NCBI GenBank assembly: GCA_023898525.1
Contig: CP060227.1
Coordinates: 957,932-1,021,931 of the forward strand
Length of the DNA stretch: 64,000 bases
Reading direction: 5' to 3'
DNA from: Candidatus Nomurabacteria bacterium
Lineage (GTDB): Bacteria; Patescibacteriota; Minisyncoccia; Phycocordibacterales; UBA918
Shown: positions 15,330 through 46,429 of the stretch, piece after piece
Position numbering within the stretch: the first letter of the stretch is position 1
Layout: the number at the start of each line of letters is the position of its first letter
Program-made: the position numbers and the translations under genes
Notes under the pieces: model-generated
What the model saw: the letters and a program-made list of their open reading frames with translations, nothing else
Told to the model about the DNA's origin: nothing
Database searches by the model: none

Positions 15330-15455
15330 GAAAGCAATGCTAAACCAATGTTCTTATTTATAGTTATTCTATAATAGCTATAAATAAACAAATAATCCAC
15401 AATCCACCAATTTAATGTATTGGAATGCGCATGGGGGAAGGATTGATCCTGACAG

Positions 15456-15590
15456 TCACCAATGTATTTTGTTCCAAGTATTCACAAAATACACAGTGCC
15501 GCGATAAAATAATGTCCAAACATTATTTTATCGCCTCGTTCGTGACAAAGTCACATCACTTCGACGCATACATTAGAAAACACTTCAAAC
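15456..15590. repeat. Element-family relative E (GTCACC start, hairpin GTATTTTG / TTCCAAGTATTCA / CAAAATAC, second perfect hairpin 15501-15534)
   Basis: Its loop matches the conserved loops at 2227, 4019 and 2021. It lies directly upstream of copy D. Confidence 0.5.
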
Positions 15591-15599
15591 AAGGATTTG

Positions 15600-15706
15600 G
15601 TCACTCTCGTGGATATTTTGCTCGCAAGCTCCAAAATATCACACTCCATTGACCTCCACTCGTCGCTACAATTTTTCGTACCTCAAAATTGGCTTCGCAG
15701 CGACTC
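15600..15706. repeat. GGTCAC-family structured element copy D (107 nt)
   Basis: Starts GTCACTCTCGTGGATATTTT. Hairpin-1 stem GATATTTT/AAAATATC. Left flank ggatttg (tRNA-Tyr T-arm half). Right flank ggttcaaatccctcccggcgc (inverted tRNA-Tyr 3' end). Confidence 0.7.
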
Positions 15707-15732
15707 GGTTCAAATCCCTCCCGGCGCTACAA

Positions 15733-15860: not shown

Positions 15861-16141
15861 ATATTTATAATTTTGTAAGAACGCTTAGTTTCTACTATGC
15901 GTTCGACCTTATTTCCTCCTTTGGTCTTGCTCGTCAAAGCTTCGCAATGACTCACATCGACCAATCTGCTCGCATTCGCTCGCAGACCAGATGAAAAGTG
16001 AAACTGTTCACTTTTCATCTGGTCTGCCACCGACGCATATGTATTTGTGTACCGTAAGTATTCTTAGAGACACGTAGGCTATAAATTACCACAACCTGTG
16101 CGTTTTTAAAAGGGCTGGCTAATGGTACCATATAAAATAAC

Positions 16142-17973: not shown

Positions 17974-18319
17974 TGGTTCACGTAATTTGTTTAACGTTGC
18001 GGTCACAGGTCACTAAGCTTGCTCCAAATATTCGCAATTTACTAAGTATCTTTGATTCGTAAAGCAGTGTCTAAACGCTGTTTTACCAGCTGTCGTATCT
18101 GCTTCGCTCGGTGCGACATGCTTCCGGCTCACGCTCCAGCATAAAAGTGATGAAGAGTACTCGGCGGTCACGAGTTACTAATTATTTTATTTCGTTACAC
18201 TCATAAAATAATAAGTACTCGCGACCCCGGCTCAGCTGTTTTTATTTCTGGAAAGGGAAATAAAAACATGCTTCCGCCTCCCGCTCGAGCACGAAAGTGA
18301 CGCAGGTCACTTTCTAAAG

Positions 18320-18352
18320 AAAAAGTACAATGCTGTTGCATTGTACTTTTTC
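18320..18352 (+). terminator. Intrinsic terminator
   Basis: aaaaagtacaatgc-tgtt-gcattgtactttttc, a perfect 14-bp stem followed by TTTTTCTTT. Confidence 0.65.
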
Positions 18353-18361
18353 TTTACTCGC

Positions 18362-18380
18362 GCGGGCCCACGAGGACTCG
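18362..18380 (-). other. Partial copy (19 nt) of the tRNA-Trp 3' end through mid T-loop
   Basis: gcgggcccacgaggactcg is identical to 18542-18560 of the intact gene. Confidence 0.7.
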
Positions 18381-18478
18381 GTCACTCTCATGGCTATTTG
18401 TTTCGTCTATATAACTCACAAATAGCTCATTCGTTCGACCCTGGCTTGTCGGCCCAAAGGGCCCCGACTTCGCCTTTC
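18381..18478. repeat. GGTCAC-family structured element copy C (divergent)
   Basis: GTCACTCTCATGGCTATTTGTTTCGTC... Hairpin-1 stem GCTATTTGT/ACAAATAGC carries two compensatory base-pair changes relative to copies A and B. Followed by the inverted T-arm fragment ggtcctcgtgg. Confidence 0.7.
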
Positions 18479-18542
18479 GGGTCCTCGTGGATCCTCGCTC
18501 GCAAAACAAAAGTAACCCTATTCGGGTTACTTTTGTTGCTCG

Positions 18543-18613
18543 CGGGCCCACGAGGACTCGAACCTCGGCCGCTGGTTTTGGAGACCAGCATTCTACCACT
18601 AAACTATAGGCCC
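18543..18613 (-). tRNA. tRNA-Trp(CCA)
   Basis: Manual fold: acceptor GGGCCTA/TGGGCCC, anticodon stem CTGGT/ACCAG, loop CTCCAAA, T-arm CGAGG-TTCGAGT-CCTCG. Confidence 0.85.
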
Positions 18614-18946
18614 TTAAAATGTCTGGGAGACATTCTAAGTTGAGTGAAAAACTTGGTTTGTCATACCTCATTATCACTCTACTTGCATACCTCTATTATG
18701 TGTCCGGGATAAAATTTGTTGAGTGAAATACTTAATCTGTTTAATTTAATATAGCACTATACTCACAAATCTCTCTTATGTGTCTGTAAGACATCTAAGC
18801 TGAGTGCAACACTCATTTATCTTGCTGTATTAAACAACAAGTGACAGTAATAGTAGGCGAAAGCCGGTGATTGGTCAAGAAATAACCAAGGGTTACCCTT
18901 GAGGAGGAGCTTGCGACGGAAAAGGGTAACCCTTGGATATTTCTTT

Positions 18947-45821: not shown

Positions 45822-45930
45822 AATAATCCTGAGTAACTAATGTAACCATAGTGCATATCCTACACTTGAAACTTACGCTCATTATGGCACTATAGTGCGA
45901 CGTGCACTATTTGTAGCACAGATTTATTTT

Positions 45931-46005
45931 TGCCGGATCGTTTGGTAGTAGGACTCCGTAAAACAGTCTCCCAGACTGTTTTACCTAGTACTGTCTATCG
46001 GTTTT
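45931..46005 (+). pseudogene. Degenerate tRNA-Gln-like copy in which hairpin H replaces the anticodon arm
   Basis: tgccggatcgtttggtagtaggac + CCGTAAAACAGTCTCCCAGACTGTTTTACCTAGT + actgtctatcggttttgattgg. The T-arm is degenerate. Confidence 0.55.
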
Positions 46006-46055
46006 GATTGGTTGAAATAAACCATGAGCAAATAATAAATCACAACAAACAACAT

Positions 46056-46075
46056 TGCCGGATCGTCTAATGGTA
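46056..46075 (+). other. 5'-half fragment (20 nt) of tRNA-Gln
   Basis: tgccggatcgtctaatggta is identical to 46141-46160. Confidence 0.7.
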
Positions 46076-46103
46076 TGTGAACATACAAACTGCGTTCGTA
46101 CGG

Positions 46104-46244
46104 AAACAAAAGAGGTATTTTAAATATTCATGTCTATCGCTGCCGGATCGTCTAATGGTAGGACTACGGTTTCTGGTACCGTCTATCGGGGTTCGAGTCC
46201 CTGTCCGGCAGCGATGGTCGGGAATTAAAATACCTCTTTTGTTT
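46104..46244. repeat. Perfect 20-bp inverted repeats bracketing the intact tRNA-Gln
   Basis: aaacaaaagaggtattttaa (46104-46123) and ttaaaatacctcttttgttt (46225-46244). Confidence 0.8.
46141..46211 (+). tRNA. tRNA-Gln(CTG)
   Basis: Manual fold: acceptor TGCCGGA/TCCGGCA, anticodon stem ACGGT/ACCGT, loop TTCTGGT, T-arm CGGGG-TTCGAGT-CCCTG. Confidence 0.8.
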
Positions 46245-46270
46245 TTCTCACTCACATTGTTTGTTGTTTT

Positions 46271-46342
46271 AGGACTCCGTAAAACAGTCTCCCAGACTTT
46301 TACCTAGTACCGTCTATCGGGGTTCGAGTCCCTGTCCGGCAG
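46271..46342 (+). pseudogene. 3' portion of a tRNA-Gln-like gene carrying hairpin H followed by an exact copy of the tRNA-Gln 3' 34 nt
   Basis: aggac + hairpin H (46279-46303) + accgtctatcggggttcgagtccctgtccggcag, identical to 46178-46211. Confidence 0.6.
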
Positions 46343-46429
46343 CAAATGTAAAAAGAATAGCTTCTACCTTATTTTTGGAAGTTTTTATATGGTCTATGTA
46401 CAAAATTATTGTGATAAACTGATATTGCT

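Follow-up and report, generated by a model that had tools for sequence, protein, structure and literature searches.

In the 64,000-nt stretch of DNA analysed here (the window), an inserted unit that we call element C lies behind the tRNA-Trp gene. The locus comprises the following features, listed in the direction of the tRNA strand:

18542..18613, minus strand: tRNA-Trp(CCA), the host gene (ARAGORN and Rfam)
18497..18542, minus strand: trailer and GC-rich terminator-like hairpin with A-rich 5′ and T-rich 3′ flank
18479..18494, minus strand: antisense arm GGATCCACGAGGACCC, the complement of two tRNA-Trp segments, the 3′ strand of the T-stem and that of the acceptor
18380..18478, minus strand: element body, which starts with GAA and ends with GTGACC (folds, RNAalifold, covariance model)
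~18443-18474, minus strand: hairpin HPa (folds)
18426-18441, minus strand: 5′ core of the body, GGGTCGAACGAATGAG
18393..18426, minus strand: hairpin HPb, the subject of the original prediction, in which a 9-bp outer stem is followed by tandem G.A (UGAG/CGAA), then by a short inner stem and the apical loop
18380-18393, minus strand: 3′ core of the body, CCATGAGAGTGACC
18361..18379, minus strand: copy 2, GAGTCCTCGTGGGCCCGCG, which repeats 19 nt of the tRNA-Trp 3′ end without mismatch (repeat family D17)
18312..18355, minus strand: second terminator-like hairpin, after copy 2, overlapping several weak Rfam chance matches
18163..18300, minus strand: decayed type 1b element (GGGGTCGCGAGTACTTA...TTAGTAACTCGTGACC), the next one in the tRNA-Trp array (repeat family D7)

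The T-loop junction C56|R57 of tRNA-Trp falls between 18560 and 18559. Copy 1 (18559-18543) is read as the present 3′ part of tRNA-Trp, supplied by the element, and copy 2, which starts directly after the T-loop TTC, as the displaced native 3′ end. The trailer segment (18497..18542) forms the centre of a long imperfect palindrome extending from copy 1 to the arm, and in the predicted folds the arm pairs with copy 1 or copy 2 to form helix P0. Helix P1 consists of GGUCG and UGACC. The covariance model matched element C at 18374-18442 (E = 2.8e-16) and the type 1b element at 18163-18228 (E = 0.004). No promoter-like site was found directly upstream of element C on either strand. The original prediction had described this locus as a divergent element copy at tRNA-Trp. 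It is not a plain repeat but an insertion unit in the tRNA T-loop, with an antisense arm matched to the tRNA and a duplicated tRNA 3′ end.

Written on the tRNA strand, the unit has the order GGTTC | RANYCC... (replacement 3′ end), trailer, terminator, arm, body | displaced 3′ end. The arm ends with ...GAA, the body with ...GTGACC, and RANYCC... follows as the displaced native 3′ end; GTTC is the 5′ flank in every case. The sequence past GTGACC copies the tRNA from R57 on, often through the discriminator, and copy 2 is often only 6-8 nt long. The arm is the reverse complement of that tRNA segment; its median length is 13.5 nt, and the longest arm has 28 nt. The tRNA is kept intact because a new 3′ end and a terminator come with the inserted unit. 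The former 3′ end remains as a direct repeat and the junction is in the T-loop, as is characteristic of tRNA/tmRNA islands. The element is a structured unit of ~130-190 nt, located in the T-loop of tRNA or tmRNA genes and carrying its own replacement 3′ end. At one locus of the collection (L020) and in window copy A the present tRNA 3′ end differs from copy 2, and the arm matches the present tRNA, which indicates that the arm and the new 3′ end travel together. We infer that the long direct repeat was most likely carried in by the element and would then not be a target duplication.

As a single strand, the unit is almost wholly base-paired. The body is a three-way junction of P0, HPa and P1-HPb, and the junction C|R lies at the stacking point of two helices. 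In type 1 elements helix P1 (GGUCG/UGACC|) ends at the junction, and the ends of type 2 and type 3 elements read GAACC-TGTAA-GGTTC|. A single extra arm base, 15-16 nt from the junction, occurs in ~20 of the ~30 alignable arms; this extrahelical base of the arm:3′-end helix is often exactly opposite the boundary between acceptor end and discriminator. Between a tRNA and the element adjacent to it there is almost always a terminator-like hairpin.

Six further copies in the window were analysed:

3767..3904, minus strand: copy A, the second in the tRNA-Leu(TAA) array (covariance model, E = 4e-17)
4343..4482, minus strand: copy B, behind tRNA-Cys (covariance model, E = 2e-17)
15593..15728, minus strand: copy D, behind tRNA-Tyr, with a divergent type-1 body (covariance model, E = 6e-9)
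2131..2266, minus strand: copy X, behind tRNA-Leu(TAG) (covariance model, E = 1e-4)
3976..4050, minus strand: type-2 element, the first behind tRNA-Leu(TAA) (repeat family D3; weak covariance-model match)
1978..2052, minus strand: type-2 element, the second behind tRNA-Leu(TAG) (81% identity to 3976-4050)

Covariance-model matches in the window were on the tRNA strand in every case. Copies A and B are 96% identical. Copy A has the arm GGAATTGAA, its body ends at 3786, and its copy 2 is AAGTCCCGCCCTCGGCACA. The 22-nt antisense arm of copy B is perfect and forms with the tRNA 3′ end a 31-bp perfect palindrome; its copy 2 is just 8 nt, and there is no T-tract between tRNA-Cys and the arm. Copy D, with an arm of 21-22 nt, carries one extra base opposite the acceptor-end/discriminator boundary, and its core has undergone compensatory replacement of AUG/CAU by GUG/CAC and, in P1, of G.U by A-U. 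In copy X the arm is GAGGACTTGAA and the HPa loop GAATACTTGGAG, and the unit ends with GGTGACC followed by AAGTCCTCTCCCGCGCA. The type-2 element at 3976..4050 is built differently: arm GGGAATTGAA, GAGGTTAGTCAG, a hairpin, CGACAACCTGTAC and a terminal TGTAA hairpin, ending in ...GTTC before AATTCC. Consensus promoter matches inside element X and the type-2 copies were not in excess (10, against 8.3 +/- 3.1 in shuffles).

The HPb stem of element C, read on the plus strand, is GCTATTTGT (18393-18401) paired with ACAAATAGC (18418-18426), and that of copies A (~3799-3832) and B (~4364-4397) is GATATTTAT / ATAAATATC. Relative to copies A and B, element C has exchanged A:T for C:G and A:T for G:C, with compensation at both positions; the two compensatory double changes that had been claimed are therefore present in the window sequence. 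The hairpins listed as further family members, at 15612, 4010, 2218, 15464 and 2012, were likewise found as stated. They do not, however, represent one covarying stem: the pooled set mixes the type-2 hairpin with HPb from copy D and HPa from copy X, and the compared positions are non-homologous, coming from different modules or element types. The 13-nt loop said to be common to several of them, CGAATACTTGGAG on the tRNA strand, occurs exactly at 2227 and 4019 and with 1-3 mismatches at 18022, 15472 and 2021. It belongs to this genome rather than to the family, since the type-2 elements of two other loci (L003 and L048) have different loops. Within the window the loop motif, allowing up to 3 mismatches, is not enriched (22 matches, against 16 +/- 4 expected).

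Covariation of the HPb stem was then evaluated in 58-81 homologues from other genomes, and was far above that of shuffled and slid controls. In the condensed alignment of 58 distinct homologues 91.7% of the cells were paired, against 80.3 +/- 0.5 in shuffles, and 184 cells carried double changes, against 56 +/- 9. The covariation score was 0.305 (0.105 in shuffles) and was reached by none of 500 shuffles; slid controls scored at most 0.073. Among 77 distinct covariance-model matches 94.8% of the cells were paired, and 15 of the 19 pairs showed compensatory changes. The homologues had been gathered by a pattern that fixes the flanking core, and the invariance of the core is thus ascertained, not measured. 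The RNAalifold consensus of the homologues supported the body fold, including helix P1. HPa, HPb and the terminator hairpin are mutually unrelated. Because pairing is kept while the sequence changes, selection acts on secondary structure. The wider alignment across genomes gave an excess of compensatory pairs rather than independent mutation of the stem positions, and 'RNA or DNA secondary structure', the level at which selection had originally been claimed, is appropriate: pairing is preserved in the window and in ~80 homologues.

About 190 copies of the element were found in Patescibacteria MAGs and metagenomes. A 23-base core pattern occurred at 57 loci in contigs representing one genome per species, where by our own rough estimate ~2 chance matches are expected, and all named records of this set are MAGs of the Patescibacteria group. 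Metagenomes contributed 114 further loci. In IMG/VR viral contigs the core pattern had no match. A tRNA gene on the same strand precedes ~40 of 65 copies in one set and 65 of 125 in another. The distances between tRNA end and core cluster at 99-125 nt, ~250-320 nt and ~450-520 nt, which is the pattern expected of arrays. The host tRNAs include those for Ala, Arg, Asn, Asp, Cys, Gln, Gly, His, Leu, Lys, Phe, Ser, Trp, Tyr and Val, and besides these at least 15 tRNA species tmRNA also hosts elements (loci L034 and L039). No account of this element family was found in the searchable literature. The closest paper, on group I introns located in Patescibacteria tRNA genes (PMC13011429), does not mention these elements.

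It is possible, if on the whole unlikely, that the elements are structured non-coding RNAs, produced from the read-through transcript of the tRNA gene and spread by duplication of the copies. Such an RNA could act as a ribozyme, serve in processing or regulation, or be a tRNA-like minihelix; its three-way-junction fold would be closed by the antisense arm together with the sense segment. Several observations fit this explanation. The element strand is the tRNA strand throughout, covariation is strong, and the 134-nt fold of element C has z = -7.1 with RNA parameters (-4.6 with DNA parameters). The more stable fold was that of the sense strand, not of the antisense strand, in all 59 copies, and in these copies G.T (in RNA, G.U) pairs exceed A.C by 36 to 20; with DNA parameters the strands are roughly equal in folding. 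Purine-rich internal loops with tandem G.A adjoin the conserved core nucleotides, and tandem G.A suits RNA as well as DNA. The junction C|R is inside the conserved core, where ribozyme cleavage sites are also placed, and the T-tract that would follow a terminator hairpin is absent from copy B.

Other results point away from an RNA product. At gathering threshold Rfam 15 recognised only 8 tRNAs in the whole window, and at E <= 10 the interval 18300-18620 gave just weak, unrelated chance matches, so that the proposed Rfam comparison yielded no family at either level; hammerhead, twister, pistol, hatchet, HDV-like, HEARO/omega RNA and tRNA-like families all remained without a match. By eye, the GA-rich core could be read neither as a hammerhead (CUGA is absent) nor as a K-turn, which would have a 3-nt bulge instead of the symmetric loops with tandem G.A. 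Element C has no promoter-like site directly upstream, the terminator-like hairpin stands ahead of the arm in nearly all adjacent copies, and with a copy 2 of often 6-8 nt a defined 3′ domain is not kept. The tandem arrays, the truncated copies, the replacement seen at strain level and the cargo genes are the behaviour of mobile DNA. The apical loops are mostly GNA triloops, GCGAAGC-type mini-hairpins being abundant, and GNRA tetraloops never occur. GNA triloops without GNRA are a signature of stable DNA mini-hairpins. Together, the terminator-like hairpins before the arm, the missing upstream promoter at element C and the triloops weakly favour DNA over RNA, and the term 'RNA hairpin' in the original prediction is not borne out by the Rfam, promoter, terminator and triloop results. 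HPb is the distal arm of a three-way-junction module and not a stand-alone RNA gene.

Signs of mobility came from comparison of the loci. L034 and L039 share the same tmRNA and upstream region, yet differ in trailer, arm and body. Tandem arrays were seen in L025 (three copies), L041, L044, L051 and L109, and cargo lies between tRNA and element in L031, L006 and L109. In one MAG the bodies at the Arg-gcg, Arg-tcg and Phe tRNAs are ~98-100% identical, and within one MAG those at the Asp and Leu tRNAs are 100% identical. Where bodies are near-identical across tRNAs of one genome the 3′-end/arm pair is nevertheless locus-specific, and a homologous trailer-terminator module is found behind different tRNAs of one MAG. 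Neither excised circles nor empty sites nor reads across a circle junction were observed. Identical-protein look-up with ClpB and MiaA, used to find strain variants, yielded nothing beyond the MAG itself and short Logan contigs. One short Logan contig ends, by our arithmetic, inside tRNA-Trp.

No candidate enzyme emerged near the elements. Pfam and NCBIfam searches of the ORFs flanking the window elements detected no recombinase or transposase; the neighbours in the window are housekeeping genes, and the families found in these ORFs are SET, M78 peptidase, RbfA, IF-2, T4SS pilins and MiaA. All-against-all comparison of 694 ORFs from 57 loci revealed no recurrent element-linked ORF family, only syntenic housekeeping clusters. 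Two candidates were rejected. In L149 a large serine recombinase is part of a 7.2-kb island at tRNA-Gln, adjoining a type-1 element. Between island and element lies a decayed copy of a tRNA 3′ end, including GGCTCG, and the island is therefore a later, separate insertion. The cargo of L031 and L006, DUF6671 with a zinc ribbon, was considered as a transposase. DUF6671 occurs with element remnants in L060 yet without them in L061, and is therefore not established as the enzyme. The DUF6671 family has 2496 homologues at E <= 1e-5, mostly on one or few contigs each, and did not match any solved structure.

We regard it as quite improbable that the elements are inert leftovers of integrase-driven islands or prophages, with the body as the attR-proximal end and hairpins that have no role of their own. 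Insertion in the T-loop region, a restored 3′ end and a displaced direct repeat are classical for tRNA-integrating islands, the L149 island beside a type-1 element is of that kind, and cargo genes do occur in three loci. Decay, on the other hand, would not maintain covarying stems. A compact unit of ~110-130 nt with intact pairing recurs ~190 times, at 15 or more tRNA species and mostly with no island, near-identical bodies stand at different tRNAs within one genome, and the L149 island is separate and no integrase is linked to the elements. That the hairpins are chance products of AT-rich sequence with coincidental compensation is practically negligible: the stems are short and AT-rich and the loop motif is not enriched in the window, but fold z-scores of -4.6 to -7.1, the 57 + 114 loci where ~2 were roughly estimated and covariation far beyond shuffled and slid controls refute it.

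From the sequence comparisons we conclude that the family probably consists of small, non-autonomous, T-loop-specific integrative elements of Patescibacteria tRNA and tmRNA genes, most likely mobile, which would act as folded single-stranded nucleic acid, with DNA weakly favoured over RNA. Identical bodies at different tRNAs could also result from gene conversion between resident copies instead of from transposition. In the proposed mechanism the integrative element would move as a folded single strand, in which the arm:3′-end helix presents a mimic of the target duplex beside the recognition module. A strand transferase encoded in trans may make one cut behind (G)TTC in the T-loop and another behind GACC/GTTC, where the element ends, and join the strands. 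Candidates for this putative enzyme are an IS91/IS200-like HUH enzyme or a recombinase that acts on folded single-stranded DNA, as IntI and XerCD do. Body and terminator module would then be a conserved 'chassis', whose 3′-end/arm pair is re-matched to each tRNA, and repeated insertions would stack into tandem arrays, at times with cargo genes.

Elements of this kind share traits with several known systems. With tRNA/tmRNA islands of the T-loop class they have in common the T-loop junction, the carried replacement 3′ end, the displaced direct repeat and the tandem arrays. They differ in their size of only ~130-190 nt, in having no integrase, in the antisense 3′-end copy and covarying three-way junction at the right junction, and in that a single body family is used at 15 or more different tRNAs. 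Integron attC sites and the CTXphi attP(+) site (IMEX) are similar in combining conserved structure with variable sequence, in the two inverted arms of one strand that form a target-mimicking duplex, possibly in an extrahelical base at a set position, in a variable terminal structure, and in the layout hybrid site, inverted arm, loop, hybrid site. The target of the elements, however, is the tRNA T-loop and not attI or dif. Their junction, GGTTC|RANYCC or GTGACC|RANYCC, misses the R-box GTTRRRY, the fourth base being C instead of R; neither an attC core (RYYYAAC...GTTRRRY) nor a dif-like XerC/XerD site is present at the element junctions, and the conserved core has no attC counterpart.

Members of the IS91 family insert at GTTC, have a subterminal palindrome at terIS and use a single-stranded DNA circle as the inserted form (bioRxiv 10.1101/2025.01.24.634351). 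The elements resemble IS91/IS801/IS1294 in the putative target tetranucleotide 5′-GTTC directly 5′ of the element and in the subterminal palindrome by a terminal cleavage tetranucleotide, type-2 elements ending ...TGTAA-GGTTC; one-ended transposition of IS91/IS801/IS1294 can, moreover, take up flanking DNA. IS91-type insertion takes place beside a 5′-GTTC/CTTG tetranucleotide and makes no target duplication. Unlike in IS91, no gene for an HUH Y2 transposase lies near any copy at the loci examined, type-1 elements end with GACC, and a tRNA 3′ end with matching antisense arm is present. The IS200/IS605 PATEs and TnpB/IscB omega RNAs are likewise small, non-autonomous and hairpin-dependent and insert 3′ of a short motif, and the sequence just past the element 3′ end is the uninterrupted target, as an omega-RNA guide would be. 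In contrast to PATEs, the left- and right-end hairpins of the element are unrelated, HEARO/omega RNA families in Rfam did not match, and no tnpA, tnpB or iscB is nearby. REP/BIME, Correia-type and RPE MITE-like repeats are also short, intergenic, hairpin-forming and multi-copy, and often stand just after terminators, but have fixed termini, no target-derived arms and no duplication or replacement of a tRNA 3′ end. Classical MITEs have constant terminal inverted repeats and a short TSD, whereas the inverted 'ends' of the element, arm and sense copy, vary with the tRNA.

A more far-reaching version, which we consider improbable, takes the antisense arm as a guide. The element would then be a re-programmable, nucleic-acid-guided insertion module, composed of the chassis and an exchangeable pair that is re-templated from the tRNA gene entered, and it would repair the gene that it interrupts. 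In a stronger form, the three-way junction would itself catalyse cutting and joining at C56|R57 and represent a novel class of ribozyme or DNAzyme-like molecule; this would account for the absence of an element-linked protein.

If the integrative-element interpretation is correct, Patescibacteria hold a phylum-wide family of the smallest known mobile elements that target tRNA genes. The genomes of these bacteria are tiny and their tRNA genes mostly single-copy, and insertion into such an essential gene is harmless because the element carries the missing piece. That a constant chassis is joined to a sense/antisense pair fitting the target suggests recognition of the target by base-pairing or by a folded-strand mimic of it. 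This principle is shared by integron cassettes, CTX-type phages, IS110 bridge RNAs and omega RNAs, and is undescribed for tRNA T-loops. A trans-acting enzyme and a circular single-stranded intermediate of ~190 nt are predicted. The elements would also explain assembly breaks at tRNA genes and the clutter of tRNA fragments in MAGs of the candidate phyla radiation, where the covariance model built here can be used to annotate them.

On the window, which is densely coding and has a GC content of about 0.40, seven of the eight tRNA genes lie on the minus strand, and the tRNA-associated elements are described on this tRNA strand. In the element behind tRNA-Trp (copy C) the stem of the hairpin first noticed, HPb, is GCTATTTGT / ACAAATAGC (plus strand 18393-18401 / 18418-18426), whereas in copies A and B, behind tRNA-Leu(TAA) and tRNA-Cys, it is GATATTTAT / ATAAATATC. 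Both stem differences are compensated on the opposite strand, as the original prediction had stated, and the further hairpins that it listed are present as described. The loop CGAATACTTGGAG occurs twice in exact form in the window, and three more times with 1-3 mismatches.

The layout of the unit is seen at the Trp locus. On the tRNA strand, tRNA-Trp runs to ...GGTTC and a junction, followed by GAGTCCTCGTGGGCCCG, the tRNA 3′ end (copy 1, read as supplied by the element), a trailer and a GC-rich hairpin flanked by A-rich and T-rich sequence. Downstream of this hairpin lies the arm, GGATCCACGAGGACCC-GAA, antisense to the tRNA 3′ part. The body is 99 nt long and has the 3′ terminus CCATGAGAGTGACC; a second junction leads to copy 2, read as the displaced native 3′ end (GAGTCCTCGTGGGCCCGCG, 19 nt), an exact repeat of the tRNA 3′ end starting directly after the T-loop TTC. 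Another hairpin lies downstream of copy 2. The same layout, with the sequences of the local tRNA, was found behind tRNA-Cys (B), tRNA-Leu-TAA (A, second in line), tRNA-Tyr (D) and tRNA-Leu-TAG (X). The 134-nt unit is predicted to fold into a three-way junction (z = -7.1 with RNA and -4.6 with DNA parameters): P0 is the arm paired with the sense copy, HPa is the second branch, and P1 (GGUCG/UGACC) runs via symmetric purine loops into HPb. By our arithmetic, one short Logan contig from the same organism terminates inside tRNA-Trp, which would fit an assembly break caused by these repeats.

RNAalifold, applied to 60 copies, recovered P0, P1, an AUG/CAU extension and HPb. Covariation was scored in a gap-free condensed alignment of 58 distinct copies, whose columns comprise 8 nt of the arm, GAA, a linker, the 5′ core, 9 nt from each end of HPb (linker-joined), the 3′ core and 8 nt of copy 2. 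Paired cells amounted to 91.7% (80.3 ± 0.5 in shuffles) and double-change cells to 184 (56 ± 9 in shuffles). The covariation score was 0.305 versus 0.105 after shuffling; none of 500 shuffles reached this value, and slid controls scored at most 0.073. In a model-fitted alignment of 77 distinct matches, which is biased towards the model's own structure, 15 of 19 pairs had compensatory changes, core pairs of divergent members included; the invariance of the core sequence flanking HPb was imposed by the search pattern, which fixed the core. The covariation in the two alignments establishes that selection acts on the structure of these elements, in agreement with the original prediction.

The search pattern has 23 specified bases and spans both cores. 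It matched 57 loci in one-genome-per-species contigs (about two expected by chance, by our own rough estimate), and all named records among them are MAGs of the Patescibacteria group (Paceibacteria, Parcubacteria, Kaiserbacteria or 'Saccharibacteria'). Metagenomes yielded 114 additional loci and viral contigs none; no Rfam family matched. R1, a covariance model of the P1-HPb domain, had six significant matches in the window, each of them on the tRNA strand, as well as weak partial matches to type-2 hairpins there; the window and the 57 genome loci together gave 81 members.

About 40 of 65 copies in the genome set lie behind a tRNA gene of the same strand, and 65 of 125 metagenome copies have an arm-matched tRNA upstream. 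The host genes include at least 15 tRNA identities and tmRNA; copies apparently lacking a host tRNA were explained by group I introns in the tRNA, by tmRNA or by contig ends. ARAGORN misses some host tRNAs because of their group I introns (L026 and L059; L063 is listed alongside). The distances from tRNA end to core cluster at 99-125, ~250-320 and ~450-520 nt, corresponding to array positions one, two and three. After GTGACC, copy 2 always starts at R57, and its identity to the tRNA (median 7 nt) often reaches the discriminator. The same tRNA segment, in reverse complement, makes up the arm (median complementarity 13.5 nt), which always terminates at its 3′ end in ...GAA or ...GAACC, the complement of (GG)TTC, and P0 retains at least 6-7 bp in every copy. 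The arm complements the tRNA 3′ strand rather than repeating the 5′ strand; the base facing G, a U in the 5′ strand of tRNA-Tyr, is C in the arm. A single extra base, mostly A, is present in the arm at about 20 of about 30 alignable loci. It lies 15-16 nt from the junction, facing the point where the last nucleotide of the acceptor stem meets the discriminator, and is reminiscent of the extrahelical bases in attC sites of integrons.

Several loci bear signs of mobility. In L020 and window copy A the present 3′ end differs from copy 2, and it is the present tRNA that the arm matches. In L034 and L039 the tmRNA and its upstream sequence are identical, and divergence is complete from the first base past the acceptor end: trailer, terminator and arm differ, and the bodies are related but not the same. 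Arrays are frequent: L025 has three tandem units of 126 nt, and mixed-type arrays occur in L041, L044, L051, L006, L011 and L109. Short copy-2 segments directly abutting the next arm look like central deletions of a long palindrome. Cargo was found in L109 (a 212-aa ORF) and in two MAGs, where genes for a zinc-ribbon and a DUF6671 protein separate tRNA-Ser from the elements.

In MAG JBKBPM01, 1-3 positions distinguish the bodies at tRNA-Arg(gcg), tRNA-Arg(tcg) and tRNA-Phe, and their trailer-terminator modules are homologous, whereas the tRNA 3′ segment and the arm are wholly different from locus to locus and complement each other at every one. DALYDM01 has 100% identical bodies at tRNA-Asp and tRNA-Leu, and copies A and B of the window share 96% identity. 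Identical bodies could also have arisen by gene conversion among resident copies. The near-identical bodies with a locus-specific 3′ segment and arm imply a unit made of a constant chassis and a target-matched pair. The junctions, 3′-end replacement, arrays, modular conservation and the conserved fold are demonstrated. A mobile element carrying a replacement tRNA 3′ end is the most likely reading as a whole, at moderate confidence, and we are more confident of the anatomy of the unit.

The nature of the folded strand was assessed from several features. The tRNA-sense strand was more stable than its complement in all 59 copies, and G.T pairs outnumbered A.C pairs (36 vs 20); both favour a strand-specific single-stranded fold. 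A terminator-like hairpin with a T-rich 3′ flank stands between tRNA and arm in nearly all of 31 adjacent cases (by inspection). Neither strand has a promoter-like site directly upstream of element C. Triloops predominate at the HPb apices; GNA accounts for at least 14 of 32 (more if one-pair closures such as G-GAA-C are counted), and none of 14 HPb tetraloops is GNRA. HPa has GCGAAGC 21 times and ACGAAGT seven times. GNA triloops and d(GCGAAGC) form unusually stable DNA mini-hairpins. Terminator hairpins, the lack of a promoter at C, GNA triloops and GCGAAGC weakly favour DNA over RNA; on the other side, copy B has no T-tract and both strands fold about equally with DNA parameters. The conserved pairing of the originally proposed hairpin was confirmed; the features above do not show it to be an RNA.

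The unit from copy 1 to GTGACC might excise and insert as a circle of ~190 nt. Its single strand would form a near-continuous rod of terminator stem, trailer/antitrailer, tRNA-3′-end/arm helix with one bulge, and three-way-junction cap, with the GACC/RANYCC joint placed between two stacked helices. The arm helix could mimic the right half of the double-stranded T-loop target, and a trans-acting enzyme would cut the target after (G)TTC and the element after GACC (type 1) or GTTC (types 2 and 3). Shared T-arm sequences may aid re-matching of arm and 3′ end to a new tRNA; ATTCCCGCCC is common to tRNA-Cys and tRNA-Leu-TAA, hosts of copies B and A. We regard the single-stranded DNA and trans-enzyme part as rather doubtful. 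Among the closest precedents are integron attC and CTXphi attP, both folded single-stranded DNA sites, and the IS91 family, whose members target GTTC, bear a subterminal palindrome at the terminating end and insert as a single-stranded DNA circle (bioRxiv 10.1101/2025.01.24.634351).

Neither a recombinase nor a transposase nor a reverse transcriptase was found linked to the elements. The large serine recombinase of L149 was rejected as their enzyme: it sits in a separate 7.2-kb island, which entered later, as indicated by a decayed tRNA 3′ copy between island and element. The type-1 element here is the older one, and the island went in proximal to it; two or more unrelated kinds of element strike tRNA 3′ regions in these genomes. 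The DUF6671 family is large, its members lying mostly on one or a few contigs, and comparison with solved structures gave no match. The cargo protein at tRNA-Ser has 287 aa and four CxxC motifs, and its partner is of the TFIIB type. The L060 homologue is flanked by type-3 and type-1b remnants, the L061 homologue follows tRNA-Glu without element remnants, and DUF6671 seems to associate with tRNA genes. Element types of the same logic with different bodies are listed with these and other loci; types 2 and 3 have a terminal hairpin with the loop TGTAA, whose 3′ strand (G)GTTC is joined straight to RANYCC.

Other element types, cargo loci and features at tRNA genes (window positions unless a locus is named)
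Type 2: arm-GAA, GAGGTTAGTCAG, hairpin, CGACAACCTGTAC
Type 3: GCCCGATTGAGC, hairpin, GCCAATTGGGGTAC
Additional end type: ...GGTGACCGTCAGGAC, in L011, L025 and at ~15440-15460
3976-4050 and 1978-2052; L003, L012, L033, L048, L109: other element types
L031 5267-6502 (minus), L006 2794-4032 (minus), L060 3001-3864, L061 3001-3870: DUF6671 loci
L149 2663-10060: island at tRNA-Gln(TTG) with large serine recombinase, KAP-family NTPase, methyltransferase and SDR
2077-2096 (minus): tRNA-Leu(TAG) fragment AGCAATCTGTGGGGGCTTAAAC, variable arm to T-stem 5′ strand, between element X and a type-2 copy; a left-hand piece, unlike the usual 3′ piece
2488-3362 (minus): two-gene islet between tRNA-Lys and tRNA-Leu(TAG), M78/IrrE-type metallopeptidase and small membrane protein, reading frames overlapping
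4255-4290: hairpin AAAAGTGTCTGGGAGACACTTTT upstream of tRNA-Leu(TAA), related to the hairpins at 18620-18850
15861-16044 (minus): 5′ side of tRNA-Tyr, mirror-image arrangement
18620-18850 (plus): three tandem units of ~79 nt upstream of tRNA-Trp, each a small hairpin (TGTCTGGGAGACA, TGTCCGGGATAAAA, TGTCTGTAAGACA) and then GTTGAGTGAAA; their TGTAA loop is seen again in type-2 terminal hairpins
45930-46345 (plus): mosaic tRNA-Gln(CTG) locus

At tRNA-Tyr the first 14 nt of the tRNA and AT-rich upstream sequence are repeated at 16023-16044; next come a hairpin, a short antisense piece (TCTGC), a body of ~120 nt and then the real gene, an arrangement suggestive of a second type of element, one entering the D-arm and supplying a new 5′ end and promoter. 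In the tRNA-Gln(CTG) mosaic the intact gene (46141-46212) is nested in an older tRNA-Gln-like gene broken after GGTA in the D-loop (5′ piece 46058-46078, 3′ piece ~46273-46345), with inverted repeats (AAACAAAAGAGGTATTTTAA / TTAAAATACCTCTTTTGTTT) on either side of the insert. A hairpin insert of 24-26 nt in the anticodon region occurs both in the older gene and in a third, truncated copy (45932-46000).

A literature search retrieved no description of these tRNA T-loop elements; as far as searched, the tiny structured elements targeting the tRNA T-loop in Patescibacteria are a family so far undescribed in the searchable literature. A consensus scan found sigma-70-like hexamers inside elements at 2232-2260 and 1985-2013 (minus strand) and 4008-4037 (plus strand), the -35 (TTGAAA) being made of the arm end ...CTTGAA plus A, and the -10 (AATACT) coming from the conserved loop GAATACTTGG. 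Promoter-consensus matches within other elements did not exceed the shuffled number, and the sites are probably due to chance, since the regional total is no higher than in shuffles; they would be of importance if the elements drive outward transcription.
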